A stretch of DNA of 61,127 bases, filler included. It is 7 parts of 7 records of this genome, joined end to end, with 100 filler letters (N's around TTAATTAATTAA, not from the genome) between each part and the next. Parts side by side here need not be neighbours in the genome. Positions count along the whole stretch, not along the records: positions 16,702 to 27,845 come from SRR31156797_46541; 6 more parts are not named here. One strand, written 5' to 3'. The notes under the pieces were generated by a model that made no database searches, was not told where the DNA came from, and saw nothing but the letters and a program-made list of their open reading frames with translations. The position numbers and the translations under genes are program-made. This document shows positions 2 to 55,068 of this stretch, piece by piece (the stretch's first letter is position 1; every line of letters starts with the position of its first letter).

Positions 2-1090
2 ATGTTCACGGCCAACTCCATGAACTGCCTGTCCGAATCTATCGGGCTGGCCCTGCCCGGCAACGGCACCATCCCGGCTGTCATGTCGGCCCGTGTACGG
101 CTGGCCAAACAGGCCGGTATGCAGGTTATGGAGATGCTGGAACGCGACATCAAGCCGCGTGATATCGTCACCGAGAAGTCCGTGCATAACGCCGTGACCA
201 TGGATATGGCACTGGGGTGTTCCACCAACACGACGTTACACTTGCCTGCGCTGTTTGCCGAGGCCGGTCTTGATTTGAATCTTGAGATGTTCAACGAGAT
301 CAGTAAAAAAACACCGAACCTGTGCAAATTGTCTCCGGCTGGTCCGCATTTTATGGAAGACCTGAACGAGTCCGGAGGTATTCCCGGCGTGATGTCCGAA
401 CTGGTCAAACGCGACCTGCTCAACCTTGATGTCATGACTGTTACGGGTAAGACACTGGGTGAGAACCTCAAGAATCTGGACGCCAAGGTGACGAATAATG
501 AAATCGTCCGGCCCATTGATAATCCGTATTCGGAAGAGGGCGGTATCGCCATCCTGTATGGTAATATCGCGCCAGAAGGATGCTGTGTGAAGCAATCTGC
601 CGTGGCTCCTGAGATGATGCAGAATACCGGCACTGCCAAGGTCTATACGACAGAAGAAGATGCAGTCGAAGCCATCCTCGGTGGCAAAATCGTGTCCGGT
701 GACGTGGTGGTCGTACTGTATGAAGGTCCCAAGGGCGGACCGGGAATGCGTGAAATGCTCACTCCCACCTCGGCTATTTCCGGCATGGGGCTTGGTGAGT
801 CGGTGGCCTTGCTAACCGATGGCCGTTTTTCTGGTGGAACACGTGGCGCGGCTATCGGACATATCTCACCCGAAGCAGCAGCTGGCGGTCCTTGCGGTTT
901 GATTCAGAATGGCGACAAAATCGAGATCGACATCCCGGCGCGGAAGATTCATCTGCTGGTGGACGATGCAGAATTGGAAGAGCGACGAAAAACTCATGTG
1001 CCTGTGATCAAGGAAGTGAAGTCCCCATTCCTGCGCCGTTACGCAAAATTGGTCACTTCAGCTTCACGTGGAGCGGTGTACGAAAAGTAA
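2..1090 (+). CDS. ilvD: Dihydroxy-acid dehydratase (5'-truncated by window edge)
   Basis: Motifs [50 protein letters not shown]. Confidence 0.96.
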
Positions 1091-1112
1091 CCGATAATAG
1101 AAAAAACTGTAT

Positions 1113-1146
1113 AGCCGGTCGAAGTGATTTCGACCGGCTTTTTTTT
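1113..1146 (+). terminator. Intrinsic terminator after ilvD
   Basis: AGCCGGTCGAA-gtgat-TTCGACCGGCT followed by a T-run. Confidence 0.85.
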
Positions 1147-1255
1147 GTTCAATTCTTTCTAAGATGTTGCATATTATGAGAGTTTCTGTGTAGGTAATGA
1201 TAGAAGTGGATTCTTGTGGTGGTGTTTCTCAATAGGTGAATGAAAAGGGGAAAAG

Positions 1256-2014
1256 ATGGGCGTTCGGTTTTTTTTGTTCGCTGTTATTCTCGTTTTGCTG
1301 CAGGTGACACCAGCTTTGAGTGAAAGCATAAAGGTTGTGACCGAAGAGTGGCCACCATATAATCAAAAGGTCCGTGGCGAAGTCGGTGGTGTGGTGACAG
1401 AAGTTGTTCGAGCTACGTTGGATCGTGCCGGATTTGAGTACTCTATTGATATTTACCCGTGGGCTCGAGCGTATGAGATGGCCCGAACGCAGAAAAATGT
1501 CCTTGTTTATTCCATTTTCAAATTGCCGAGCAGAGAATCTCATTTCAAATGGATTAAGGTCGAAGGGCTATCCATTGATATGTATTTGTTCAGTCCGAAA
1601 CATCGGACAGATATCACGATTACAACATTGGATGAGGCTCGAAAATATAGGGTCGGAGTAACTCGTGAGACGTCCACGCACCATTTTTTACTTTCTCAGG
1701 GGTTTAAAGATGGAGTTAATCTGTTCCCCGTTAATTGTGAACAGCAGAATGAGTTGAAATCTTCCCAAAATGTCGGGCGCATAGATCTGACAACCGGAGA
1801 TAAACTGTCGCTGGCCCATTGGCTTAACCAATCTGGCCACTCCTCTGATTATTGGGTTCCCCGAGTACCTCTTTTTACAGAGGATTTTTACATGGCATTT
1901 GGCAATGAAACCTCTGACGAAGTCGTGGAAGGTGTGCGAAGGGCGTTTTCAGAAATTCGTGAAGAAGGGCAACTGGACGCTATCGTGGATAAGTACTGGC
2001 GTATGTTTGAATAG
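1256..2014 (+). CDS. Family-3-like periplasmic solute-binding protein (no permease nearby)
   Basis: N-terminal signal peptide; TEEWPPY, YPWARA, FYMAF and IVDKY patterns of SBP_bac_3-like proteins. Confidence 0.8.
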   Translation: MGVRFFLFAVILVLLQVTPALSESIKVVTEEWPPYNQKVRGEVGGVVTEVVRATLDRAGFEYSIDIYPWARAYEMARTQKNVLVYSIFKLPSRESHFKWIKVEGLSIDMYLFSPKHRTDITITTLDEARKYRVGVTRETSTHHFLLSQGFKDGVNLFPVNCEQQNELKSSQNVGRIDLTTGDKLSLAHWLNQSGHSSDYWVPRVPLFTEDFYMAFGNETSDEVVEGVRRAFSEIREEGQLDAIVDKYWRMFE

Positions 2015-2048
2015 CTCCGCTTAATATGGGGTTTCTACCCTTTAGAAA

Positions 2049-2087
2049 TGAGAAAAGCCTCCTTGCGGAGGCTTGTTGTTTTTCTCA
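2049..2087. terminator. Hairpin, likely bidirectional terminator
   Basis: AAGCCTCC-ttgc-GGAGGCTT flanked by TGAGAAAA/TTTTCTCA. Confidence 0.75.
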
Positions 2088-2105
2088 GTGCAAAAAAGGA
2101 AGATG
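2050..2105 (-). ncRNA. Candidate sigma54-dependent small RNA (~55 nt)
   Basis: Lies between the -24/-12 motif at 2116-2132 (minus) and a terminator hairpin; no ORF in between. Confidence 0.4.
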
Positions 2106-2115
2106 CTTTCTTTAT

Positions 2116-2132
2116 AGCACGTGGCGTGCCAA
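2116..2132 (-). promoter_or_regulatory. Sigma54 (-24/-12) promoter
   Basis: Minus strand reads TTGGCACGCCACGTGCT, giving GG-N10-GC with TGGCAC. Confidence 0.7.
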
Positions 2133-2300
2133 ACTTTTTTATATTGAAAATAAATTTTTTAAAATCAATAAAAACGAATGCTTAGATAGATAGGCTTTTT
2201 GTTTGTTGAAAGGTTGTTTTATCCCGTGCGAGTACAAGAATTTTTACTTCTTCAAGAACACCTGTGATACCGACAAAATTTTTAAACCTGTTGAAATAAG

Positions 2301-2329
2301 AAAAGGGCCGCCCGAGAGCAGCCCTTTTT
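2301..2329 (-). terminator. Terminator after aminotransferase
   Basis: AAAAGGGC..GCCCTTTTT imperfect hairpin 20 nt past the stop. Confidence 0.65.
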
Positions 2330-2348
2330 GTTGTGTATGAATGTGGGA

Positions 2349-3539
2349 CTATTTGTATTTTTCCATGGTTCGGGCAAAGCCGTCTTTGGCTCGCAGAATA
2401 ACATCTTCACCCACGCAGAAAGCGAGTCTGATGTAGCCGGGACAACCAAAACCGGTCCCTGGAACGGCCAGAATCTTTTCTTCCTGCAAGGCCGCGCAGA
2501 ATTCGATGTCATCTCCACCCGGTGCTTTGGGGAAAAAGTAGAAGGCGCCTTTGGGCATGGTGTACTCACATCCTGCATTGTCCAGAACTGACGCCATGGC
2601 TTTGCGGCGGTCGTCATAAATTGAGATGTCCACGGAGCTTCCCAACGCTTTGCCGAGAATCTTTTGCGCCAAAGCCGGGGCGTTGACGAAACCGAGGATG
2701 CGGTTCGCGAGAACAATACCGCCGACGAGTGTATCCTTGTCCTCCATAGCCGGATTGACCAGCGCATAGCCGATGCGCTCACCAGCCATGGACAGGTTCT
2801 TGGAAAAGGAGGAGCAGACCACCGAGTACGGATAGACATCCAGCATGCTCGGGACCTCCACGCCGTCAAAGGCGAGAAAGCGGTAAGGCTCGTCAGACAG
2901 GATGAAGATCGGTTTGTCGCGGCCTTCATTGTGCTTGTGAAGAATGGCGGCCAGACCGTCGAGCTCTTCGCGGGAGTAGACCGCACCTGTGGGGTTGTTG
3001 GGTGAGTTGATGAGTACCACGCGGGTTTTGTCCGTAATGGCGGCGTCCATTGCATCAAGGTCCAGTTCAAAGGTCAGAGGCTTGGCCGGGACCGGGACCA
3101 GAGATGCACCGTAATTTTCACAATAGAAACCATATTCGACAAAGAATGGTGCCGGGGACATGACTTCATCGCCCGGTTCCAGCACGGCGCGGAAAAATGA
3201 GTTGAGCGCACCGGCTGCGCCACAGGTGATGATCAAGCTGTCAGCGGGAACGTCCACGCCCTGTTCCTTGCTGACTTCTTCAGCCAGTCTTTGACGAACG
3301 TCAGGATAGCCGAAGTTGGGCATGTAGCCCATGAAGAAGGGCTTGTCTGCCTGTTCTGCCAAATCGTTCAGAGCATTTTTGATCGCGGCAGGCGGTGGCA
3401 GATCGGGGTTGCCCAAACTGAAGTCGCAGACCGCGTCTTCACCGAATTGTTTCTTCAGGGCAATTCCTTCCTCAAACATTTTGCGAATCCATGAGGACCG
3501 CTTCATGTAGCCGGATATTTGGGATGAGATCAGTTGCAT
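2349..3539 (-). CDS. PLP-dependent class I/II (aspartate-type) aminotransferase
   Basis: NSPNNPTG, SDEPY, SFSKNLSMAGERIG; start MQLISS preceded by AAGGAG. Confidence 0.92.
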   Translation of the reverse strand: MQLISSQISGYMKRSSWIRKMFEEGIALKKQFGEDAVCDFSLGNPDLPPPAAIKNALNDLAEQADKPFFMGYMPNFGYPDVRQRLAEEVSKEQGVDVPADSLIITCGAAGALNSFFRAVLEPGDEVMSPAPFFVEYGFYCENYGASLVPVPAKPLTFELDLDAMDAAITDKTRVVLINSPNNPTGAVYSREELDGLAAILHKHNEGRDKPIFILSDEPYRFLAFDGVEVPSMLDVYPYSVVCSSFSKNLSMAGERIGYALVNPAMEDKDTLVGGIVLANRILGFVNAPALAQKILGKALGSSVDISIYDDRRKAMASVLDNAGCEYTMPKGAFYFFPKAPGGDDIEFCAALQEEKILAVPGTGFGCPGYIRLAFCVGEDVILRAKDGFARTMEKYK

Positions 3540-11362: not shown

Positions 11363-11462
11363 NNNNNNNNNNNNNNNNNNNNNNNNNNNNNNNNNNNNNN
11401 NNNNNNTTAATTAATTAANNNNNNNNNNNNNNNNNNNNNNNNNNNNNNNNNNNNNNNNNNNN
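11363..11462. other. Artificial contig spacer (N44-TTAATTAATTAA-N44)
   Basis: N-runs around an all-frame stop linker; composition changes across it. Confidence 0.98.
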
Positions 11463-16255: not shown

Positions 16256-16601
16256 TTATTGCAGCTCTATTCCAACCGGACAATGATCGGAACCCATTAC
16301 CTCGTTTAAAATCCAGGCTTTAGTTAATTGTGGCAGGAAACTCTGACTTACCAGAAAATAATCGATTCTCCAGCCAACGTTCTTGGCACGTGCACCTGCC
16401 CGGTAACTCCACCACGAGTATTTATTCGTTTCGCGGGGATAAAAATGTCTGAATGTATCAACAAATCCACCTTGTGAATACCGGTCCATTCCATCAATTT
16501 CTTCCTGCATAAAACCAGCCGACTTGTTGTAATTTGGTTTCGGACGGGCAAGGTCGATCTCCCTGTGGGCCACATTAAAATCGCCACAAACAATTACCGG
16601 T
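16256..16601 (-). CDS. xth: Exodeoxyribonuclease III (5'-truncated)
   Basis: GDFNVAH, YSWWSYR, GWRIDY, GSDHCP. Confidence 0.93.
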
Positions 16602-16701
16602 NNNNNNNNNNNNNNNNNNNNNNNNNNNNNNNNNNNNNNNNNNNNTTAATTAATTAANNNNNNNNNNNNNNNNNNNNNNNNNNNNNNNNNNNNNNNNNNN
16701 N
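16602..16701. other. Artificial contig spacer
   Basis: N-runs around TTAATTAATTAA. Confidence 0.98.
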
Positions 16702-17492
16702 GCACCGACAGACAATCCGCATTTACCTTTTCGTGCTCTGTGGGAATGAAATTCATGCTTATTGCAGGCTGTACATATATCAGCATCAATTATATTTGAT
16801 TCCTTTACGCTGCTTCTTAGCAATTGCAGTTTTACAGCCCTGGGCAGATTTACGTGTGCTTTTTCATAATCAGTGGATACTACTTTATCACTTCTGTCAA
16901 ATACTTTGTCAAATTCCTCCGCAACTTCATCTCCAACCTCGAAGCAGCACTCATGTATACACGGACCTATTGCACATATTAAATCTTTTGGATTTGTGTT
17001 ATAGGCTTTTGTCATTTTATACACAGTTTTTCCTGTAATGTTCATAACTGTTGATTTCCAACCGCTGTGTACCAGACCAATTGCTTCATTTATTGGATCA
17101 TAGAGATATATTATTGTACAATCTGCACTAAATTTGGTTAATGTGACATTTTTTCGATTTGTAATCAGAGCATCAGCTCGCTCCATTGGTTCATCATTCT
17201 GATAGTATTTATAGAAATCTTTATCCTCAACTTCATAAACATTGTCAGTATGAATTTGTCTGCTGAAAATGATATTATCATAGTCTGCATCAATAGCCTT
17301 AGCGAAAAGCTCTACATTCTTTGTCACATTGCTTCTGGTATCGCCTCGTACAACAGAGAAATTCATCTCTCCCAAATCGCCTTTTGTAACTCCACCATAT
17401 CTTGTAGTAAAAAAGGCAGATACTTTTGCATTACACATCTCATCTACCTTGTAGAGGGTAACTCCCTCTGAAACTATTTTCTCAAAACCCAT
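16702..17492 (-). CDS. pgeF: Peptidoglycan editing factor PgeF/YfiH (3'-truncated)
   Basis: FTTRYGG, QIH, ADALIT, SADC, VHSGW, IGPCI, CFEVG. Confidence 0.9.
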
Positions 17493-17516
17493 TTGTTTTG
17501 TCTGTCTCCTTAGCTT

Positions 17517-17969
17517 TTAGGTATTAATCAGCTTATTCAGCTCATCCTTAAATGATTCAATGTCCTTAAACTGCTTATAAACTGACGCAAAGCGAACGTA
17601 AGATACCTGATCAACATCCATTAACATATCCATTACCATTTCGCCGATTTCTTCGCTTGCTATTTCATTGTCCAAAGAATTATACACATATTTCTCTACA
17701 GCCGCAACTATATTATCTATTGCAGTAGCACTGACAGGACGCTTGTAGCATGATTTTATCAAGCCATTCCGTACCTTGTTAGGATCAAAAGGCTCTCTTT
17801 GACCATTATTCTTTACAACCAATGTAGTTGGCTGTTCGATTTTCTCATAGGTGGTAAACCGCCTGCCGCAGTTTATGCACTCTCTGCGCCGTCTGATGGC
17901 AGTACCGTCATCAGTAGGTCTGGAATCTGTAACTTTACTGTCCATACAGGAGCAATATACACATTTCAT
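17517..17969 (-). CDS. nrdR: Transcriptional repressor NrdR
   Basis: MKCxxC, DSR, IRRRRECxxCGRRFTTYE, ATP-cone, YVRFASVY. Confidence 0.97.
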   Translation of the reverse strand: MKCVYCSCMDSKVTDSRPTDDGTAIRRRRECINCGRRFTTYEKIEQPTTLVVKNNGQREPFDPNKVRNGLIKSCYKRPVSATAIDNIVAAVEKYVYNSLDNEIASEEIGEMVMDMLMDVDQVSYVRFASVYKQFKDIESFKDELNKLINT

Positions 17970-18010
17970 ATTATGCCTCCCAATTTAACTTAATCTACCC
18001 AATAAATATA

Positions 18011-18694
18011 TCATATACCAGCTTTATTCTCAATAGGCGTTATATCTTTGTGCTTTAGCAAAGATATAGCCATCACAAAACTTACTATATACATCACACT
18101 AAGAGCAAAATATATAAATCCGTCAAGTGCTATAGGGGTAAACCTATACATAAAATCATCAATTTGATAATTAAATATATTCAGTAATGACGCAATAAGT
18201 ACCAAAATAAATATTGTTCGAACTTTTCCCTTTGACTTTATTATTAGAGCAATGGATAAAATAACCTCTACAGCAACTAAAATATAAAAAATTATACTCT
18301 CTACGCTATTTAATGGTCCTCTGAACCTATCCAGTTCCTCTGCAGGATTATTGTTAATAATAATCATCCATAGGAACATTCCTAAGCAAATTATAACTAT
18401 CCTTAGAATTTTCGTATAGACAAGACCTTTCGTCATTTTACAAATACCTTCGTTTTGTTTATATACAAATATAACGGCAAATAATATGAAAAGTCTTAAA
18501 ATAAAGGCGATAGACTCTGCAATAATACTATTGCTGTAGTTATTGCTAATAATAAAGAAAATTTCATGCGGCATCACAATAGACAAATCCAGTCTGGATA
18601 ATCCTAATATTAATTCATGGATAATTCCCAGTATACACATTAGTCCTATTACCTTATTGCTGTGTTTAAATTTGATTTCCTTGTTTAATATCAT
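18011..18694 (-). CDS. Hypothetical multi-pass membrane protein, paralogue 4 of tandem array
   Basis: About 6 hydrophobic segments; GGGAGG RBS; shares motifs with the three neighbours. Confidence 0.8.
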   Translation of the reverse strand: MILNKEIKFKHSNKVIGLMCILGIIHELILGLSRLDLSIVMPHEIFFIISNNYSNSIIAESIAFILRLFILFAVIFVYKQNEGICKMTKGLVYTKILRIVIICLGMFLWMIIINNNPAEELDRFRGPLNSVESIIFYILVAVEVILSIALIIKSKGKVRTIFILVLIASLLNIFNYQIDDFMYRFTPIALDGFIYFALSVMYIVSFVMAISLLKHKDITPIENKAGI

Positions 18695-18734
18695 TAATCC
18701 TGCCTCCCATTTTTACAATATTAATTCCGTTGAG

Positions 18735-19412
18735 CTAATTTATTTCTTTATCTTTTAACTCATTTTTAGTACGCATCAACCCAAACGCCAGTTGAAAACT
18801 CGCAATATATAAAAGATTTGTAATACTATAAATATATATATACAAATCTATTTGAATAAAAACATTAATAAATTCACTTATTTGATAAACAAAAGTTTCT
18901 ATAAGCATTGCTAACAAACCAAGAATGAAAATAGTTCGTATTTTTTCTTTAGATTTTATTATTAATAATATAGACAAAACTATTTCTTGTAGAATAAATA
19001 TAAATACGACTATATTTTCAAAATCAAAAAGACTACTGAGAAAATTAATATTAAAGCTGTTGGTTCCTTTATTCAGACTTAATATTAATATCATCATAGT
19101 CAGTCCCACAATAAGAATACGTGATAATTTTATATATATTAAACTCTTTGTCATTATCCTTTTGCCTTTGTTACCATTGTATATATGAGCAATTGCGAGT
19201 AATATAAATATCCTGAAAACAACTGAAACAATACTCGAAGCAACAGTATTTTTATAATTATTACCAATTACAGATAGTATTCCTGATGGATTATCTGATG
19301 AAATTTCCAATCTGGAAAATGCTAATATCAGCTCGTGAAAGGTTCCAAGAATACAAAATAATTCAATTATTTTATCGCTGTGTTTTATTTTGATTTCTGT
19401 GTCTAGTTTCAT
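18735..19412 (-). CDS. Hypothetical multi-pass membrane protein, paralogue 3
   Basis: Clearly similar to 18011-18694 (EIKxKHS, CILG, HELIL, NNY, IIKSKxKxRTIFIL); ATGA overlap with upstream gene. Confidence 0.8.
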   Translation of the reverse strand: MKLDTEIKIKHSDKIIELFCILGTFHELILAFSRLEISSDNPSGILSVIGNNYKNTVASSIVSVVFRIFILLAIAHIYNGNKGKRIMTKSLIYIKLSRILIVGLTMMILILSLNKGTNSFNINFLSSLFDFENIVVFIFILQEIVLSILLIIKSKEKIRTIFILGLLAMLIETFVYQISEFINVFIQIDLYIYIYSITNLLYIASFQLAFGLMRTKNELKDKEIN

Positions 19413-20071
19413 TGTCTATCCCTTCTATTATCTGTTATCAATTTCATTGAAATAATATAACCTGCTATATATATAATGCCTGTAAGCGCCATGTACACAA
19501 ACTCTTTATATAAAATTACATGAAAAATATTTATTTCAATCCGTATAAACCCTATAAAGAAAGCAAATATACCAATTGCCAATAATTCGAGTGCAAACAG
19601 CTTCTGTATTTTTGCCTTTGAAATCAATAATAATCTTATTATTATCACTATTTCGCAAACGAAAAACAGCAGATACATTACTGATGAAAAAATATATCCC
19701 AGTCTATCAGGTGAATACATTAAGAGCACAGAGCTAAATGTATTTGTAAGCAGCTCTAAACCGCCCAGATAAATCTCAAGACATAACAAAGCTTTTATTA
19801 TTATCAATATCCATGTGTGGAAATACAGTGCTCCTCTTTTTTGTATCGCATATAACACAGCGAAAAAAATCACCATTCTAAAAATATTTATCAGCAATTG
19901 TATTATAGCGTCATATTTGTATGATAAATTAAACAGCCTACCAAATATCTGCGGATTACTAAATAACCCAGTTAATACATATATAATCTCCAGCATTATG
20001 CCTGCAAGGCATAATAAAATAATAAGTAAATCAAGTAATCGGCTGTGGCTGGCTGAGATTTTCCTAATCAC
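19409..20071 (-). CDS. Hypothetical multi-pass membrane protein, paralogue 2
   Basis: CLAGIMLE, FRMVIFFA, EIVII..SKAK motifs; GTG start overlaps upstream stop. Confidence 0.75.
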   Translation of the reverse strand: MIRKISASHSRLLDLLIILLCLAGIMLEIIYVLTGLFSNPQIFGRLFNLSYKYDAIIQLLINIFRMVIFFAVLYAIQKRGALYFHTWILIIIKALLCLEIYLGGLELLTNTFSSVLLMYSPDRLGYIFSSVMYLLFFVCEIVIIIRLLLISKAKIQKLFALELLAIGIFAFFIGFIRIEINIFHVILYKEFVYMALTGIIYIAGYIISMKLITDNRRDRQ

Positions 20072-20736
20072 TATTTTGCACTTTTATCATTTACGAGTAA
20101 AGACAAAGCAATTAAATAATTGATAATAAACAGTAATCCTACTATACCAAGCTCAAGTGCGCTTCCATAATTATTTGATAGGGTCATATCTTTTAACAAG
20201 CTGAGTTTATTTATTAATGGAAATACAAATAAGAGCACTAGTGCGATCATCTCTATTATGAAAATCTTCCTTTTATTCTTTCTTGATTTAACCAAAAGCA
20301 ATATTAGTAAGTATGCCTCAATACCCATTAACAAATAATAACATGCATTATAAACGTATATCCATCTGGCAGCTTCGATAGAGTGCTCTGCATTATCAAC
20401 CATCGCATTAGCGATTAATGAATATGCAAAAAAGCCTACCCCTATAACTCTTAGCAAACGAACCACCATCAAATCCTGAGTTCTTATATGTACCGGTGTG
20501 TCTAGACTTGTTGATGTAATTACCGCAAACAAAATAGATAGTCTTATCAGGGATACTAGGATAGCAATAATATAATGATTATTATTCATCCAATAAAATA
20601 CGTTAACAACAATATCAATATCTGCAAGCAGCTGAGATAAAAACCACAATATTTCAACTACTATACCTATGAAGCACAGCAGACCAATTATTACTCGGAT
20701 AATCTTTGGATTAATCTCTTGATTTAGTTTTACCAT
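20071..20736 (-). CDS. Hypothetical multi-pass membrane protein, paralogue 1
   Basis: CFIGIVVE, IRLSILFA, EAYLL..KSRK motifs; GAGGTG RBS. Confidence 0.78.
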   Translation of the reverse strand: MVKLNQEINPKIIRVIIGLLCFIGIVVEILWFLSQLLADIDIVVNVFYWMNNNHYIIAILVSLIRLSILFAVITSTSLDTPVHIRTQDLMVVRLLRVIGVGFFAYSLIANAMVDNAEHSIEAARWIYVYNACYYLLMGIEAYLLILLLVKSRKNKRKIFIIEMIALVLLFVFPLINKLSLLKDMTLSNNYGSALELGIVGLLFIINYLIALSLLVNDKSAK

Positions 20737-20750
20737 TTTCCACCTCTTTT

Positions 20751-21296
20751 TTACCTAAAATCACAATTAATTATATGGTCGTTTACTACACCTATAGCTT
20801 GTATATATGAATATATAATGGTTGTCCCAATAAACTTGAATCCTCTCTTTTTCATATCTTTTGAAATTTCATCTGATAATGGAGTGCTTGCCGGCACCAG
20901 AGAGTCATCTTCCCATTTATTATCTATTTGCTTGTAGTCTGTAAAATGCCATATATAATTATAAAATGAACCAAACTCCTTCTGAACTTCTATAAATCTT
21001 TTTGCATTGTTTATAGATGATTCCACCTTTAGTCTGTTTCTTATTATTCTGGTATCGTTTTTTAACTGCCCAATCTTTACAGTATCATAATTTGCTATTT
21101 TTTCATAGTCGAAGTTATCATAAGCTTTGCGGTAGCCCTCACGCCTCTTTAGGATAGTTGACCAGCTAAGACCTGCCTGCGCAGATTCCAATACTAGAAA
21201 CTCATACAGTACTTTCTCATCTTTTGTAACTTTTCCCCATTCGTTATCATGGTACTCCTGCATTGATTCATGCGTTCCCCAGCTGCATCTTTTCAT
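20751..21296 (-). CDS. tag: DNA-3-methyladenine glycosylase I
   Basis: RCSW, YHDNEWG, LESAQAGLSW, IIRNRLK, GFKFIG, VNDH..C. Confidence 0.96.
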   Translation of the reverse strand: MKRCSWGTHESMQEYHDNEWGKVTKDEKVLYEFLVLESAQAGLSWSTILKRREGYRKAYDNFDYEKIANYDTVKIGQLKNDTRIIRNRLKVESSINNAKRFIEVQKEFGSFYNYIWHFTDYKQIDNKWEDDSLVPASTPLSDEISKDMKKRGFKFIGTTIIYSYIQAIGVVNDHIINCDFR

Positions 21297-21330
21297 TACT
21301 TTCTCCCATTATATCTCTTAAATACTAGTT

Positions 21331-21339
21331 ATTATACCA
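21331..21339 (-). promoter_or_regulatory. Extended -10 promoter for tag and downstream genes
   Basis: Minus strand TGgTATAAT about 35 nt upstream of tag. Confidence 0.6.
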
Positions 21340-21424
21340 CAGACTAATACTATTATTAACATTGTTTTCCTAAATTGTTTTTATATTGTGCTTGTAAGTT
21401 CCATTATGTTTATTTTCCTATTTG

Positions 21425-21453
21425 TTGCATTATACTATTATGGACTGTATAAT
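21425..21453 (+). promoter_or_regulatory. SigmaA promoter for rbfA operon
   Basis: TTGCAT-N17-TATAAT. Confidence 0.7.
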
Positions 21454-21480
21454 AAAATAATAGTAAAAGGAGACCAGAAA

Positions 21481-21834
21481 ATGGCAAACTATAGAACACA
21501 AAAAGTGAATCATGACATACAGAGATTGGTTTCACAGATTATAAGAGAAGAAGTAAATGATCCAAGGGTATCAAAGATGTGCTCTGTGCTTCGTGCTGAT
21601 GTTACAAAGGATCTAAAACATGCAAAAATATATATCAGTACAATTTCAGAAGAACACCCATTGAAAGAGACTGTTAATGTCTTGAACAATGCAGCTGGTT
21701 TCATCAAGCACAGACTAAGCGAAACAATGCACACAAGATCTGTTCCCACTCTGAAATTCATCGGCGATGTATCAACACTTCACAGTATAAATATCGCAAA
21801 AGCTCTGGAGGATATCCAGCATGATGAACAATAA
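21481..21834 (+). CDS. rbfA: Ribosome-binding factor A
   Basis: DPRV, VTKDLKHAKIY, AAGFIK, VPTLKF; AAGGAG RBS before ATG 21481. Confidence 0.93.
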   Translation: MANYRTQKVNHDIQRLVSQIIREEVNDPRVSKMCSVLRADVTKDLKHAKIYISTISEEHPLKETVNVLNNAAGFIKHRLSETMHTRSVPTLKFIGDVSTLHSINIAKALEDIQHDEQ

Positions 21835-22777
21835 TACAATTAGTGAAATTCTGGATGTAATTACATCTGCTAAGAAGCCTCTCATTGTATGTCATGAAAA
21901 TCCAGACGGCGATACATACGGTTCTGCCTTTGGACTAAGGGCAGGACTAAATATGGATTGTGCAGATATCGCCTGTGCAAATAATATCGACTGGCCGTTT
22001 ACTGAGCTGAATATAGAAGGCACTATACAGAAGATAGATGATATCTATGATTTGTACATATTCGTAGACTGTGCAGATAATATTAGATGGGGCGAAGCAA
22101 TTAATTCACAGCTGAATCCAAAAGTTAAAAAAGTAAACATTGACCACCATCCCACCAATAACTGCTACGCAGACTACAACTATGTACTGGCTTTGTCTTC
22201 CACCTGCCAGATTATCTTTGATATTTTGATGGAACACACAGACAGTATTTCAAAAGAAACAGCCAACTATCTATACATTGGCGTTATAACCGATTCAGGT
22301 CTGTATGTCCACGGTTATACCACCTGCCATACATTATTTACAGGTGGAAGGCTGATAGATTTTGGTGCTGACTTTGAGCGAATATCTAAACTATTATTCA
22401 GAACTGTTAATAAAAGCACTGCACTATTAACAGGAAAACTATACAATAATTTAGAAATTATAAATGATGAAATAGCAATTTCCCATCTCACATTTGATAA
22501 TTTCAAATCAGCCAATGCCAATTATGAAGATAGTGAAGGTCTTATAACCCATTTAACCAATATTGATGGTATGAAGGTTTGTGTTTTCTTAAAGCAGATT
22601 GAGAAAAATACATATAAGGCAAGTCTACGCAGTATTAACGGTGTAGATATTGTAAATCTTGCTTTGGAATACGGCGGTGGCGGACACAATCAGGCAGCTG
22701 GTTGTAGATTCACCGGCAAAATTGATGATATAAAAAAAGAAATTATAGAAAACATATACAAATTAGAAATTTTATGA
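21821..22777 (+). CDS. nrnA: DHH/DHHA1 phosphoesterase (NrnA-like)
   Basis: HENPDGD, VDC, NIDHH, TDSG, SLRS, GGGGH. Confidence 0.88.
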   Translation: MMNNNTISEILDVITSAKKPLIVCHENPDGDTYGSAFGLRAGLNMDCADIACANNIDWPFTELNIEGTIQKIDDIYDLYIFVDCADNIRWGEAINSQLNPKVKKVNIDHHPTNNCYADYNYVLALSSTCQIIFDILMEHTDSISKETANYLYIGVITDSGLYVHGYTTCHTLFTGGRLIDFGADFERISKLLFRTVNKSTALLTGKLYNNLEIINDEIAISHLTFDNFKSANANYEDSEGLITHLTNIDGMKVCVFLKQIEKNTYKASLRSINGVDIVNLALEYGGGGHNQAAGCRFTGKIDDIKKEIIENIYKLEIL

Positions 22778-23646
22778 ACGGATATTTGAATATATTTAAA
22801 CCCACAGGACTTACATCCAGCAATGTGGTAAGCCGTGTCAGATATAATCTGAAACTAAAGAGAGTAGGACATGCAGGTACTCTTGATCCTGCTGCTGCAG
22901 GGGTGCTTCCTGTTATGATTGGCAGCGCATGCAAAATGTTTGATTATCTTAATCTGGATAGGAAAAAGTATATAAGCGAATTTACATTCGGACACCATAC
23001 CAATACACTTGACCAGCAGGGAGAAATACTGCAAAGCTCAGATACTGTACCCAGCACAGATGATATTAAAAGAATTATTGCAGAAAAGTTTATCGGAGCT
23101 ATAGATCAGATACCGCCTAAAATATCAGCTATCAGCATTGACGGCAAGAGAGCCTATGCTATGGCAAGAGACGGCAAAGAGTTCAGCATTCCCAGCAGAA
23201 AAATTACCATATATAATTATAAGCTTTTACGGCAAACAGGGGAGAAGTCGTTCCTCTTTGAGATTGAGTGCTCCAAAGGTACATATATCAGAAGTCTTTG
23301 CAGGGATTTGGCAAAGCAGTTAAATTCACTTGCTTATGTCAGTTTTCTCTTGCGAAGTGAATCAGGATACTTTAATATGAATAATGCAATAACTTTGGAG
23401 GAATTAGAGCAACATTCCACAAATGGCACAATTGCAGATTATATCATAAATATTGATGCACCATTATCTCATCTAGAAGCATTAAATATGTCAAAGAAAT
23501 ATGAGAAGAAGCTGCTAAACGGCGGAACAGTGGAGCTAAAGGGTACAGAGGATAAGAAGCTGATAAAAGTCTATATAGATAATGGCTTTATCGGCATAGG
23601 AAGAGCACAAAATGAAATCGTTAAAATACAGAAACTTTTTATATAA
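22774..23646 (+). CDS. truB: tRNA pseudouridine(55) synthase
   Basis: KPTGLTS, GHAGTLDP, QIPP, CSKGTYIRSL. Confidence 0.96.
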   Translation: MNGYLNIFKPTGLTSSNVVSRVRYNLKLKRVGHAGTLDPAAAGVLPVMIGSACKMFDYLNLDRKKYISEFTFGHHTNTLDQQGEILQSSDTVPSTDDIKRIIAEKFIGAIDQIPPKISAISIDGKRAYAMARDGKEFSIPSRKITIYNYKLLRQTGEKSFLFEIECSKGTYIRSLCRDLAKQLNSLAYVSFLLRSESGYFNMNNAITLEELEQHSTNGTIADYIINIDAPLSHLEALNMSKKYEKKLLNGGTVELKGTEDKKLIKVYIDNGFIGIGRAQNEIVKIQKLFI

Positions 23647-23653
23647 TACCAGA

Positions 23654-24577
23654 ATGGATAATCCATGTGTAATACTTGGAAATTTTGACGGTGTCCATCT
23701 GGGGCATGGTCTGCTGATTAATACAGCTGTCAATCTATATGGGCAAGAAAATGTAAAGGTCTATTACTTTGACCCTCATCCAAAAAACATCATATCCCCT
23801 GATACGGTTCCTCGTATTCTATCTCCCTACGAAATCAAGAAGCGGATATTTCACAACAAATACAAAGTAGACTTTGACACAATACCTTTTACCAGCGATC
23901 TATCCCATATGTCAGGGTATGAGTTTGTTGATTTTCTGATAAAGCACACAGGAGCTAAGTACATTGTAGTAGGCGGTAATTACTGCTTTGGTCATATGGC
24001 GAAGTACAATGCACATGATTTATACGAAATGGGAAAGACCCTAGGAATAAAGGTACACATAGTAAATGAATTGATTATGAATAATAACGTGGTGTCATCT
24101 ACAGTGATTCGTAAATGCTTAAAAGAAGGAAATATCGAGCTTGCTAATAAGTATTTAGGCAGGGTGTATTCAGTAATAGGTAAATGTATAGTAGGCAAGC
24201 GTATCGGCGATACCATCGGCTATCCTACATGTAATATGGACATAGATAGCAATATTCAGTACCCCGCATCAGGTGTATATGCTACAAAGCTTAGGATACT
24301 ATCCTCCAGTACTCCAGATAAATTGATGCCTGCAATGACTAATATCGGCTACAATCCTACGATTGCGCAAGGAAATCAAAGAGGCATTGAAACTCATATA
24401 TTTGATTTTGATGAGGATATTTACGGCGAAGAAGTAGAAGTGTTTTTCTACAAAAGACTTCGTGAAGAACGGCACTATAAGTCTATTGACCAGCTGGTAT
24501 CCCAGCTTGATGTTGACAAAAACATGAGCCAGAATTATTTTGAGGATTTAAATTATGAAGATTTGTTCATTTTGTAA
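23654..24577 (+). CDS. ribF: Bifunctional riboflavin kinase/FAD synthetase
   Basis: GNFDGVHLGH, VSSTVIR, GYPTCN, GVYA, NIGYNPT, ETHIFD. Confidence 0.95.
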   Translation: MDNPCVILGNFDGVHLGHGLLINTAVNLYGQENVKVYYFDPHPKNIISPDTVPRILSPYEIKKRIFHNKYKVDFDTIPFTSDLSHMSGYEFVDFLIKHTGAKYIVVGGNYCFGHMAKYNAHDLYEMGKTLGIKVHIVNELIMNNNVVSSTVIRKCLKEGNIELANKYLGRVYSVIGKCIVGKRIGDTIGYPTCNMDIDSNIQYPASGVYATKLRILSSSTPDKLMPAMTNIGYNPTIAQGNQRGIETHIFDFDEDIYGEEVEVFFYKRLREERHYKSIDQLVSQLDVDKNMSQNYFEDLNYEDLFIL

Positions 24578-24628
24578 TATTATGTTTAAGGTATGGCTAA
24601 ATTCTAGAAATTATATTATAGTATAGCT

Positions 24629-25069
24629 ATGAATACTCAAATGTACACAATCTTTGCAATGCTTGTTCGCTACGTTCTGCTTGTAATTGTTTTTATAGGT
24701 ATTATTCAGGCAATCAAGGAAAGCCGCAAGGACAATATATACAGAGGCTTTACAGAAATCGCTACACTTTTGATAGTTGACACTAGAGAAAAGTTCGCTT
24801 TGGAACAGGATAATACCATCGGCAAAGCAAAGAGAAATGATATAGTAATTAAGCACAGGAGTGTGGGACAATCCCATGCCAGGCTGTATTTCGAGACTGA
24901 TGAATGGATAATTGAACCCTTCAGACGCAAAAAGGTCTTTGTCAATATGTATCAGGTTACGGATAAATATATTATAAAAAATAATGATGAAATTGTTTTC
25001 GGCGATATGGTATGCGTATTTAATCAGCATGAATTATTGCTAGAGGAGGGTGAAATTGAAGAAGATTGA
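24629..25069 (+). CDS. Membrane-anchored FHA-like domain protein (degenerate pThr site)
   Basis: N-terminal TM, then TIGK..NDIVI..VGQSHARL and VFVN..DEIVFG FHA-like strands. Confidence 0.75.
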   Translation: MNTQMYTIFAMLVRYVLLVIVFIGIIQAIKESRKDNIYRGFTEIATLLIVDTREKFALEQDNTIGKAKRNDIVIKHRSVGQSHARLYFETDEWIIEPFRRKKVFVNMYQVTDKYIIKNNDEIVFGDMVCVFNQHELLLEEGEIEED

Positions 25070-26297
25070 TAAATTTCGCCTCCATCTGGATAAAGCTGCA
25101 TTTTTTGTTATTGCAGGTTATATTCTGCTTTCATTTCGTGGGGAAAAGCTGGATGCCAGAGCATTATTTCTGATGCTCGGAGCACTGCTTTTGCTATTCA
25201 TAGAATTTATTGTGATTAAATCATTCTTTATGGGAATAAGTAAGGCACTATTAATATGTATGAATATGCTCCTTGCCATATCCCTTATAATGCTCTATCG
25301 TCTGGATATAGAGTACGGCACAAGGCAATTAATATGGATTAGCCTTGGCATGATTGCCATGTTTATTACCATGCATTTTCTAATCAAATACAAAAACCTC
25401 CACAAACATCATTACATATATATGGGCATTGGGCTTATCCTGCTGGCAATGAGTCTGGTCTTTGGTTCTCTTATCGGGGGAGCAAAAAACTGGATAAAGT
25501 TTGAGTCTTTGGGGCTTAGTTTTCAGCCGTCGGAATTTGCGAAAATAACCTTAATTGCTGCATTAGCCAGCATATTTTGCCACAGACAGAGGAGACTACT
25601 GCAGTTTCTGGCTATCTGTTACGCTATGGTAAGTATTTTAATGCTTGTAATGAGCAACGATTTGGGAGCTTCCCTGCTATACTTTTTTACATTCATTTGT
25701 ATATTCTATGCTGCAACCAGCTCAGGCATATTGACCATTACCGCTCTTTCCATGTTTGCAGGTGCGGCATATGCCAGCTACTATCTGTTCTCTCATGTAA
25801 AAACCAGAGTAGATGTATGGATTGATCCCTTTACCGATCCAAATGGAAACGGATATCAATTGATACAGGGCTTAATCTCCATGGTTTCCGGCGGTGCTTT
25901 TGGCTCTGGGTTAGGCGTTGGTTCTCCACGTTATGTACCAGCATATGACACAGATTATATATTTACTGCTATCAGTGAAGAAATGGGACTAATCATGTCA
26001 ATATTTATAATATTAATATATGTAATTATCCTCTACGAAGGGGTAAAGGCTGCATATCACGCAACCAACAGATTCTATTCACTGCTTGCCCTTGGTTCTA
26101 CTGTACTTATTACCATTCAGACATTTATCATTATCGGCGGTATTATCAAATTAATCCCCTTAACAGGCATAACATTGCCTTTTGTGTCCTATGGCGGCTC
26201 ATCCGTTGTAGTATCTATGGTATTAATGGGCATAATTCAATCTGTAACATATAAGAACAACAATAACGAAATTTTTGAGGATATTTCTCTTGGATAG
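25050..26297 (+). CDS. SEDS family (FtsW/RodA/SpoVE) peptidoglycan glycosyltransferase
   Basis: GAKNWI, FQPSEFAK, DLG, GYQL, TDYIF, PLTGITLPFVSYGGSS. Confidence 0.94.
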   Translation: MKLKKIDKFRLHLDKAAFFVIAGYILLSFRGEKLDARALFLMLGALLLLFIEFIVIKSFFMGISKALLICMNMLLAISLIMLYRLDIEYGTRQLIWISLGMIAMFITMHFLIKYKNLHKHHYIYMGIGLILLAMSLVFGSLIGGAKNWIKFESLGLSFQPSEFAKITLIAALASIFCHRQRRLLQFLAICYAMVSILMLVMSNDLGASLLYFFTFICIFYAATSSGILTITALSMFAGAAYASYYLFSHVKTRVDVWIDPFTDPNGNGYQLIQGLISMVSGGAFGSGLGVGSPRYVPAYDTDYIFTAISEEMGLIMSIFIILIYVIILYEGVKAAYHATNRFYSLLALGSTVLITIQTFIIIGGIIKLIPLTGITLPFVSYGGSSVVVSMVLMGIIQSVTYKNNNNEIFEDISLG

Positions 26298-27672
26298 ATT
26301 ACGTAAAAATATAAGAAATTTAGCTGTCTTACTGGTTATCATATTTCTGATTATGATTGTATACATGATATATGATGTCATTGTATTGCAGAATTCTCTG
26401 ATAAATTCACCCTATAACGGCAGAATGGATGATGTCCGTGAATCAACTACATCAGGTAGTATCTATGACAGACACGGCATACTATTGATGAGCGGTGATG
26501 ATTCAGATACAATTGATACGGAAACCGCTATAGCAACCTGTCACCTGATAGGCGATGAATATGGTTTCTGCTCAGCAGGGGCGATTACTCAATACGCTTC
26601 CATTCTCCTTGATTACGACAGAAATATTTTCGAGGAGATTTATAATGCTATTTCAAAAGATGAAATAAAAGGTGATGATATAACCCTTACTATTGATGCC
26701 AATTTAAATAAATACGCTGGTAACTTACTTGATAATTATAATGGTGCAGTAGTAGTGCAGAATTACAAAACAGGAGAGATATTAGCCATGGTATCTAAAC
26801 CTGATTTTGACCCAAATGCTATAGACCCTCAATATCCCAACGGCGGTGCGGCAGATGAGTCTCTGGTTAATCGTGTCACCTACGGACAATATTCCCCGGG
26901 AAGTCTTTTCTATCTCTTTACTCTTGGCGCAGCTATAGAATATCTGGATGATTATGATACAAAAAGCTATGTATGCACTGGTACATGCTCCATAGATAGT
27001 AAAATATACCAATGTGATGAACCTCATGGCTCAATAACTATTGAAGAAGCATATCTAAATGACTGCAAGACTGTAATGGCTCGTCTGGGAGTAGAGATTG
27101 GTGCAGCAAAATTAAATAGATATGCAAGTCAATTATTGTTTAATAAAAGATTTAATTACAGCAATATTTATATGACCCAGTCTCATTTCCATCTGAGCTT
27201 CAACGAGGAAGATGATGGCATAGCAAATGCTGCAATCGGTCAGCATGAGGATACTGTGTCCCCTCTTCATATATGTATGCTCTTTGGTGCAATAGCAAAT
27301 GACGGCTACCTGATTGACCCAATGCTGATAAAGAAAATCAGCGAGAGATTCATTGCATCTGACAAGTATGGTATGCGAGTCTTTTCCAAAGATACCATTA
27401 ATGTTTTCAATGAGATTTTAAATCAGTCATCTGATGAAACCCAGACTGATTTAACCGTTAATACCGACGGCATCAATATTCTTGGCAAATCAGCAAAAGC
27501 TATAGTTCACTCGGAGGATTTGGTGCTGCCTAATATCTGGTACGCAGGATTTGTTGACAGCGAGGAGCATCCTCTGTCTATCACTGTAATAGCAGAAAAC
27601 TGCGTAGATGAATCATTCAGCAAAGATATTGCGGAGGATTTGCTTATGTATGCCATCGCTCTAGGCTACTGA
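26275..27672 (+). CDS. Class B penicillin-binding-protein-like protein with degenerate active site
   Basis: GSIYDRHG, LTID, TGEILAMVSKPDFDPN, AIGQ, VSPLH, WYAGF; SxxK, SxN and KTG motifs altered. Confidence 0.85.
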   Translation: MRIFLLDRLRKNIRNLAVLLVIIFLIMIVYMIYDVIVLQNSLINSPYNGRMDDVRESTTSGSIYDRHGILLMSGDDSDTIDTETAIATCHLIGDEYGFCSAGAITQYASILLDYDRNIFEEIYNAISKDEIKGDDITLTIDANLNKYAGNLLDNYNGAVVVQNYKTGEILAMVSKPDFDPNAIDPQYPNGGAADESLVNRVTYGQYSPGSLFYLFTLGAAIEYLDDYDTKSYVCTGTCSIDSKIYQCDEPHGSITIEEAYLNDCKTVMARLGVEIGAAKLNRYASQLLFNKRFNYSNIYMTQSHFHLSFNEEDDGIANAAIGQHEDTVSPLHICMLFGAIANDGYLIDPMLIKKISERFIASDKYGMRVFSKDTINVFNEILNQSSDETQTDLTVNTDGINILGKSAKAIVHSEDLVLPNIWYAGFVDSEEHPLSITVIAENCVDESFSKDIAEDLLMYAIALGY

Positions 27673-27722
27673 TATATTCCTTCATTTACATTATAATGTA
27701 AAAAAATAATAATATTATACCC

Positions 27723-27751
27723 TTGCTCCATTTAGTCATTTCATGTATAAT
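27723..27751 (+). promoter_or_regulatory. SigmaA promoter upstream of SRP RNA
   Basis: TTGCTC-N17-TATAAT. Confidence 0.65.
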
Positions 27752-27794
27752 GACTCTACGTCTAAATCAACGACTTGCGTATATAGCATGTGTC

Positions 27795-27845
27795 GGAAAC
27801 TGTGCAACTTAGGCCTGTGAACCATGTCAGGTCCGGAAGGAAGCA
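27795..27845 (+). ncRNA. ffs: Signal recognition particle RNA (3'-truncated at contig end; 5' end approximate)
   Basis: Conserved helix-8 sequence TGTCAGGTCCGGAAGGAAGCA. Confidence 0.88.
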
Positions 27846-27945
27846 NNNNNNNNNNNNNNNNNNNNNNNNNNNNNNNNNNNNNNNNNNNNTTAATTAATTA
27901 ANNNNNNNNNNNNNNNNNNNNNNNNNNNNNNNNNNNNNNNNNNNN
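27846..27945. other. Artificial contig spacer
   Basis: N-runs around TTAATTAATTAA. Confidence 0.98.
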
Positions 27946-33099: not shown

Positions 33100-33199
33100 N
33101 NNNNNNNNNNNNNNNNNNNNNNNNNNNNNNNNNNNNNNNNNNNTTAATTAATTAANNNNNNNNNNNNNNNNNNNNNNNNNNNNNNNNNNNNNNNNNNNN
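33100..33199. other. Artificial contig spacer
   Basis: N-runs around TTAATTAATTAA. Confidence 0.98.
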
Positions 33200-48149: not shown

Positions 48150-48249
48150 NNNNNNNNNNNNNNNNNNNNNNNNNNNNNNNNNNNNNNNNNNNNTTAATTA
48201 ATTAANNNNNNNNNNNNNNNNNNNNNNNNNNNNNNNNNNNNNNNNNNNN
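48150..48249. other. Artificial contig spacer
   Basis: N-runs around TTAATTAATTAA. Confidence 0.98.
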
Positions 48250-54968: not shown

Positions 54969-55068
54969 NNNNNNNNNNNNNNNNNNNNNNNNNNNNNNNN
55001 NNNNNNNNNNNNTTAATTAATTAANNNNNNNNNNNNNNNNNNNNNNNNNNNNNNNNNNNNNNNNNNNN
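54969..55068. other. Artificial contig spacer
   Basis: N-runs around TTAATTAATTAA. Confidence 0.98.

Follow-up and report, generated by a model that had tools for sequence, protein, structure and literature searches.

A tandem array of four diverged membrane protein genes of a narrowly distributed, previously undescribed family between tag and nrdR

Organization of the array

The stretch of DNA analysed here (the window; 61,127 nucleotides, filler included) carries, between the genes tag and nrdR, a tandem array of four genes, A to D, which encode diverged multi-pass membrane proteins. The window was assembled from seven pieces joined by six spacers of the form N44-TTAATTAATTAA-N44 and is not contiguous DNA; the pieces are contigs that probably stem from a mixed bin or a metagenome. 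The array lies on the third piece (positions 16702-27845, 11,144 bp), which is bounded by the second spacer on the left and the third on the right (Table 1). The G+C contents (GC) of the seven pieces are, in order, 0.50, 0.40, 0.35, 0.49, 0.60, 0.51 and 0.41. As the spacers join separate pieces, gene neighbourhoods are not to be read across them.

The array consists of four co-oriented open reading frames (ORFs) placed head to tail in one frame series, and the coordinates and lengths given by a first-pass annotation (227, 225, 220 and 221 amino acids for A to D) proved to be exact. Also its description of the ORFs as mostly overlapping agrees with the junctions, as two of the three overlap: at the D/C junction (TAGTG) the GTG start of C shares one nucleotide with the TAG of D, and at the C/B junction (ATGA) the ATG of B overlaps the TGA of C by four nucleotides. 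Genes B and A are separated by a gap of 40 nt. Judged from these junctions, C is probably translationally coupled to D, and B to C. The position between tag and nrdR is supported by a PF03352 match on one side and NrdR domains on the other.

The AT-richness reported earlier was likewise seen when the array was compared with the other genes of the same contig. The GC of the array genes is 0.25-0.32, against 0.35-0.40 for the other genes, and their GC at third codon positions (GC3) is 0.20-0.30 against 0.29-0.40. Gene B has the lowest GC3 of the four (0.195), while that of ftsW, which encodes a membrane protein of equal hydrophobicity, is 0.39. The shift is real but modest, and the hydrophobic amino acid content explains only a part of it.

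Homology, motifs and topology

The four proteins are homologous paralogues, as had been proposed, with blastp E-values ranging from 6e-53 to 4e-7. The pair A-B was 43% identical (E 6e-53) and the pair A-D 34% (E 2e-16), and protein C matched D, B and A with E-values of 1.8e-11, 1e-7 and 4e-7, respectively. All pairwise alignments were colinear and spanned most of the length of the proteins.

Every motif listed in the first-pass annotation was present in all four proteins. In the numbering of gene A, helix 1 has the invariant positions C20, G23 and E27, helix 2 has R67, I70 and A73, and helix 4 has E143; T88 and L91, S154 and F162 around the basic loop, and I203 and L212 are likewise the same in all four. 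The basic loop, S-K/R-x-K-x-R, follows helix 4. E143 was kept in all nine aligned members of the family. In the relative P0003, His replaces the helix-2 Arg and Cys replaces T88.

The hydropathy profile of each protein showed six hydrophobic segments, and the basic residues were concentrated in the inner loops, in agreement with the multi-pass topology suggested before. The numbers of Lys and Arg residues inside and outside were 11 and 3 in A, 14 and 2 in B, 10 and 5 in C, and 11 and 3 in D. This bias places both termini of all four proteins on the inside, in the same orientation, and thus excludes a design of antiparallel pairs.

AlphaFold2 models, built on an alignment of nine sequences, were obtained for A (predicted local distance difference test, pLDDT, 77.9; predicted template modelling score, pTM, 0.74) and for D (pLDDT 79.3, pTM 0.77). 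Each model consists of six long helices, with a further short one (8-11 residues) in outer loop 1, and in both the hairpin of helices 3 and 4 is unusually long, with 31-36 residues per helix and a variable tip. The charged residues are located in the outer third of helix 1 (E27), in the middle of helix 2 (R67) and in helix 4, some ten residues from its cytoplasmic end (E143). No internal 3+3 repeat was detected when the N-terminal half was compared with the C-terminal half by hhalign (probability 0.1). A complex prediction with the four chains D, C, B and A scored 0.00, and being made without controls or custom alignments, it speaks neither for nor against binding.

Comparison with known families and folds

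No match above the cut-off was found in Pfam, NCBIfam, PADLOC or PHROGs. PADLOC gave no family for any of the four proteins, and the sole PHROGs match had an E-value of 4.5. Nine members of the family were tested against Pfam with E-values up to 10, and none of the nine matched the ABC2_membrane families, CPBP/Abi (PF02517), DUF443 (TsaI) or Bac_rhodopsin. Neither of the two assignments that would have spoken against a new family, ABC-2 permease or Abi/CPBP, thus received a Pfam match. The CPBP proteins are characterized by the motifs EExxxR, FxxxH and HxxxN/D; these were not searched as patterns here, and the alignment of the nine members has no conserved His or Glu-Glu columns. The only Pfam family touched was MauE (PF07291), by gene A with E 0.0063 and by gene B with E 0.77, in both within helices 4-5. 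MauE/DoxX was rejected as a candidate, as the best score, 17.3 bits, was below the gathering score of 27 and only two of the nine members matched. The nearest clusters in the ESM Atlas (0.92) were either unnamed or labelled 'DUF4386', and had no Pfam family in common.

The profile search of the Protein Data Bank (PDB) with the family alignment A3 gave PmtD as the best match (9q2r and 6xjh; E 0.025-0.028, 17.5 bits, bias 13.3). The alignment is colinear and pairs positions 90-193 of the profile with approximately residues 100-205 of the chain, covering helices 3-5, and it sets a Leu opposite the invariant Glu of helix 4.

In the structural searches, the best Foldseek match in the PDB had an E-value of 0.17 and a TM-score of 0.37, the best rows being G-protein-coupled receptors (GPCRs) and bacteriorhodopsin, and the best match in BFVD had an E-value of 0.094. 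VIA-align was run over 48,161 chains; according to the calibration of the program, Z-scores below about 13 may for helical bundles indicate only a common arrangement. The best match for both models was the microbial rhodopsin 6xl3_A, with Z 10.9, a root-mean-square deviation (rmsd) of 4.9 Å and 177 residues for model A, and Z 11.7, 5.0 Å and 180 residues for model D. The 19 best matches of model D, without exception microbial rhodopsins or channelrhodopsins, extended over almost all of it, and designed helical barrels scored similarly to the rhodopsins. The nine-member alignment has no conserved Lys column inside helix 6, and the proteins have no Schiff-base lysine. A type V exporter chain was not among the 50 matches listed for either model, though absence from this list does not exclude the fold. 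The statement of the first-pass annotation that the family is not recognizable was thus confirmed by the libraries, and the structural searches returned generic helical-bundle folds only.

Distribution and relatives

Among 1.84 billion representative proteins, a profile search returned five matches at E ≤ 0.001. These represent 90%-identity clusters of 2, 1, 1, 1 and 1 sequences, all on metagenomic contigs of 537-3,018 bp. A word-indexed search with protein A added a further relative, P0007 (53% identity to A), located on a contig of 9,025 bp. With the family alignments, the word-indexed search found nothing (A1) or P0005 only (A3); hydrophobic words swamped the candidate lists. The identities to the relatives were 33-53% and concentrated in the helices and motifs. 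The relatives of D are P0002 (50-52% identity) and P0003, and those of A are P0001 and P0006 (51-52%), P0007 (53%) and the third gene of the contig L001 (42%), so that the A/B-type has the most relatives elsewhere.

The four proteins of the window were absent from a collection of 15 billion proteins. Pattern searches gave 41 matches in 185,579 species genomes (with alignment A2) and 195 in the viral contigs of IMG/VR, none of which was confirmed, and the scan of metagenome contigs gave one locus, L001. A six-frame profile search covered 401 genomes from one Clostridia order, the one to which the nearest relative by NrdR belongs. It gave five weak partial matches, none of them credible (E 2.3e-4 to 7.8e-3 per genome, 15.7-19.9 bits). 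Three were inside frames of 786-901 amino acids, and all five were read as noise. The three nearest genomes gave no matches. The NrdR of the contig was at most 66% identical to that of any of the best 80 Clostridia loci. None of these 80 NrdR loci (L002-L081) had a member of the family, and tag was never found within 8 kb of nrdR; hence no 'empty site' can be defined. The family has a very narrow distribution and was not described before, and neither sequence nor fold assigns it to a known one.

Contigs with identical pieces of the contig of the array were found in the sequencing run X1, with a word depth of approximately 3-5. Furthermore, a contig of 218 bp in X2, a marine sediment metagenome run, corresponds to the inside of gene C (19750-19967) with two differences. 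A nearly identical organism may be present at very low depth in the marine sediment of X2, but the piece is too small to name a habitat or to see variation in copy number.

Subtypes and loop variation

The maximum likelihood tree was constructed of ten sequences: A-D of the window, P0001, P0002, P0003, P0005, P0006 and the third gene of L001. It contained a C-type clade (100/99) formed by C and P0005, and an A/B-type clade (100/99) formed by A, B, P0001, P0006 and the third gene of L001. D, P0002 and P0003, which are D-like, were adjacent but did not form a resolved clade, and P0003 was on a long branch.

The contig L001 is only 2,732 bp long, too short to show the flanks of its array, and carries copies of all subtypes (Table 1). 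Its order is D-like, C-like, A-like and B-like and that of the window D, C, B and A, the common order being D, C, A/B, A/B. As the subtypes are present on both contigs, their split predates the divergence of the two organisms. The array of L001 is longer than four genes, and its fifth copy may begin a second unit.

The identity between members varied among the parts of the protein. In helix 1 it was 0.57 within and 0.35 between subtypes, followed by outer loop 1 (0.44 and 0.16), outer loop 5 (0.28 and 0.12), outer loop 3 (0.16 and 0.13) and the C-terminal tail (0.12 and 0.09). The earlier claim that the outer loops differ strongly therefore applies among the four paralogues but not to loop 1 within a subtype. 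Outer loop 1 is a conserved, subtype-specific element, kept within a subtype to the same degree as the helices, while loop 3, the tip of the hairpin, varies freely.

Genomic surroundings and transcription

On the strand opposite to the array, the contig carries rbfA, nrnA, truB, ribF, an FHA-domain gene, ftsW, a penicillin-binding protein gene and the start of a signal recognition particle (SRP) RNA. The FHA-domain, FtsW/RodA-family and penicillin-binding transpeptidase genes form a row at 24629-27672 (+), a cell-wall synthesis cluster. The RNA at 27791-27845 (+) comprises the first 55 positions of the bacterial small SRP RNA (RF00169, 35.6 bits, E 1.3e-4) and is cut by the end of the contig. 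In the top-scoring Clostridia loci, a pgeF/YfiH-type gene is located directly downstream of nrdR, as on the present contig, with 41 ORF matches among the 80 loci.

Domain searches found no mobile-element, toxin, secretion, bacteriocin, phage or ATPase gene on the 11-kb contig. The earlier remark that no ATPase or toxin gene accompanies the array holds for this contig and, the window being chimeric, for this contig only. Left of the array, the genes hrpB, GNAT and tauE and an exonuclease fragment are part of a different contig. The last of these, at the right end of the neighbouring piece (16256-16573, -), is an ORF of 105 amino acids that matches only the C-terminal part of Exo_endo_phos (profile positions 158-225 of 225). 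Upstream of this ORF the gene does not continue in a single frame, and it is a truncated or broken one of the exonuclease III type.

Table 1. Features of the window and of the contig L001. Positions refer to the window, except in the rows for L001.
Feature	Position	Strand	Description
Artificial spacers	11363-11462, 16602-16701, 27846-27945, 33100-33199, 48150-48249, 54969-55068		
pgeF/YfiH-type gene (Cu-oxidase_4)	16702..17492	(-)	PF02578, E 1.2e-69; 3' end cut by contig end
nrdR	17517..17969	(-)	PF22811 and PF03477 (ATP-cone and NrdR zinc ribbon); GGGAGG Shine-Dalgarno site; starts 41 nt downstream of A
Gene A	18011..18694	(-)	227 amino acids; A/B-type; GGGAGG Shine-Dalgarno site
Gene B	18735..19412	(-)	225 amino acids; A/B-type; AAGGGA Shine-Dalgarno site
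Gene C	19409..20071	(-)	220 amino acids; C-type; GTG start; most divergent of the four
Gene D	20071..20736	(-)	221 amino acids; D-type; first of the array; GAGGTG Shine-Dalgarno site 5 nt upstream
tag (DNA-3-methyladenine glycosylase I)	20751..21296	(-)	PF03352, E 1.2e-74; ends 14 nt upstream of D
Promoter-like site	21331..21359	(-)	TTAATA-17-TATAAT with TG; divergent gap of tag and rbfA; 10 of 12 matches in consensus scan
L001 copy 1			D-like; 52% identical to D; cut by contig start
L001 copy 2	625-1267		C-like; split over two frames (one frameshift)
L001 copy 3			A-like; intact, 230 amino acids; 42% identical to A, 36% to B
L001 copy 4	1962-2610		Closest to B; split over three frames (two frameshifts)
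L001 copy 5 (start)	2579-2731		Best match the D-like P0003; long basic N-terminal extension and helix-1 motif

Between tag and nrdR, the array included, the minus strand showed no terminator-like site, and the genes would form a single transcript tag-D-C-B-A-nrdR-pgeF, of which tag is the probable first gene. The best promoter-like site, the candidate promoter of this operon, is weak, since promoter-like sites in the region were not enriched over shuffled sequences (34 against a mean of 30.6). Rfam gave no riboswitch or other RNA near the array, and no RNA run was among the sequencing runs listed for the contig.

Interpretation of the array

Tentatively, we favour the reading that the members of the array are non-redundant partners whose working site would be the buried Glu-Arg-Glu. 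We consider this a better guess than the alternatives below but one with less than even chances, and the argument for the function is an indirect one. It draws on the old subtypes, the order common to two contigs, the coupling, the housekeeping setting and the subtype-specific loop 1. D, C, B and A would be made from one transcript, with translation coupled from D to C and from C to B, and the diverged subtypes would cooperate in the membrane, whether assembled into a hetero-oligomer or acting as the parallel modules of a fixed set. The group of buried Glu, Arg and Glu would serve as a proton or cation path or would bind a small charged ligand, and through outer loop 1 each member would have its own contact with a partner or substrate. 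The predicted positions of E27, R67 and E143 are compatible with a polar ladder through the bundle. A narrower version, a hetero-oligomeric ion- or proton-conducting complex of D, C and two A/B-type subunits with a ladder of Glu (helix 1), Arg (helix 2) and Glu (helix 4), in a family confined to an uncultivated low-GC lineage that resembles Clostridia and is recorded solely in metagenomes, seems unlikely.

Several observations weigh against partners with a buried working site. Neither sequence nor fold linked the proteins to a known family of transporters, channels or enzymes, and the buried Glu/Arg pair may be a mere structural salt bridge. Only two arrays are available for comparison; A and B are reversed in the window relative to L001, and the tree gives neither one-to-one orthology for A and B nor a resolved D-type. 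Frameshifts interrupt the C-like and the B-like copy of L001; they are not at homopolymers of six or more, and if they are real, these copies are dispensable there. L001 has one A/T run of at least six, against six such runs in the array of the window; with so few long homopolymers, real decay and assembly error are not separable. Loop 3 is variable even within subtypes and the AT content of the array somewhat exceeds that of the flanks, both of which fit a fast-evolving accessory array.

The strongest of the alternatives, which we regard as doubtful but deserving of attention, is that the array is a diversified set of proteins that act singly in immunity, as receptors or in exclusion, each neutralizing or recognizing another membrane-targeting toxin, bacteriocin or phage. 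It would work in the manner of the tandem TsaI genes but lack the toxin gene, as an 'orphan immunity' array. Such a set might well consist of tandem polytopic paralogues with a conserved first transmembrane helix and more variable later outer loops, as seen in loop 3. It would also suit the extreme rarity and patchiness of the family (five matches in 1.84 billion representatives), the GC and GC3 below those of the flanks, and the L001 array with its interrupted copies and at least five copies in all. However, the 11-kb contig has no toxin, secretion, bacteriocin or phage gene, no PADLOC, PHROGs, DUF443 or CPBP match was obtained, and the viral contigs contained no relative. Furthermore, the subtypes are old and keep the order D, C, A/B, A/B on two diverged contigs, and the array is situated inside a putative housekeeping operon with probable translational coupling. 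Outer loop 1 is kept within subtypes but not between them, which fits specialization better than an arms race.

That the proteins are highly diverged permease subunits of the ABC-2 type (type V exporter), with their ATPase encoded elsewhere, we consider improbable. PmtD, of similar size and with six transmembrane helices, was the best sequence match in the PDB, and ABC-2 permeases often occur as tandem paralogues. The match is nevertheless non-significant and composition-biased and leaves the invariant Glu opposite a Leu; moreover, none of the nine members matched ABC2_membrane, no such permease was among the 50 best VIA matches, and the contig has no ATPase gene.

Somewhat less probable still is a derivation from the fold of microbial rhodopsins or seven-helix receptors, in which the proteins would be lysine-less six-helix forms acting as retinal-free ligand sensors or ion carriers. 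The models point in this direction in so far as 6xl3_A heads the VIA matches of two independent models and GPCRs and bacteriorhodopsin the Foldseek rows. The Z-scores are, however, in the chance range for helical bundles with an rmsd of about 5 Å, designed barrels score alike, the Foldseek values are poor (E ≥ 0.17, TM-score 0.37), and the models have six long helices and a short one with no Lys in the last helix.

Chance ORFs or decaying remnants in AT-rich DNA, which the absence of the proteins from the 15-billion collection, the interrupted copies of L001 and the lack of a listed RNA run might suggest, are hardly credible in view of four long ORFs with Shine-Dalgarno sites, identities of 33-53% in helices and motifs, and confident AlphaFold2 bundles. 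The remaining probability falls to some other function.

If the four proteins form one complex, as the favoured reading of non-redundant partners allows, they would represent a new type of small membrane machine with a fold assignable to no solved family. Should each instead act on its own in immunity or as a receptor, they would constitute a membrane immunity family not known before and would mark an unknown interaction with a toxin or phage in an uncultured lineage. What is new is a family that cannot be placed by sequence or fold, and not a demonstrated new mechanism. The practical value is modest, with about seven contigs worldwide, an uncultured host and no pointer to a phenotype.

Comparison with known systems

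MauE, the only Pfam family touched, is a smaller domain (profile length 128) than the proteins of the array. The microbial rhodopsins, represented by the chloride pump of Mastigocladopsis repens (6xl3), resemble them in being compact bundles with buried ionizable residues, but differ in having seven helices instead of six and a Schiff-base lysine, and share no sequence similarity with them. PmtD, the ABC-2 permease of the PmtABCD exporter of phenol-soluble modulins, has like the array proteins approximately 220-250 amino acids and six transmembrane helices. It differs in that the Glu of helix 4 is not matched, the contig of the array encodes no ABC ATPase, and PmtD was not among the top structural matches.

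The published account of TsaI (PMC9484751) describes it as a DUF443 protein with five transmembrane helices, present in 2-16 tandem copies with only roughly the N-terminal 75 residues conserved, the genes adjoining that of the type VII secretion system toxin TspA in Staphylococcus aureus (PMC9484751). TsaI differs from the present family in having five predicted helices instead of six, and in its adjacent toxin, whereas the array has tag upstream and no toxin domain on its contig. Also the copy number of tsaI varies from 2 to 16 between strains, while the subtypes of the array are old and in a common order on two contigs. The two systems are alike in that co-oriented genes, which follow one another and are not identical, encode small polytopic membrane proteins in a genome of the Bacillota type, with the N-terminal helices better conserved than the later regions.

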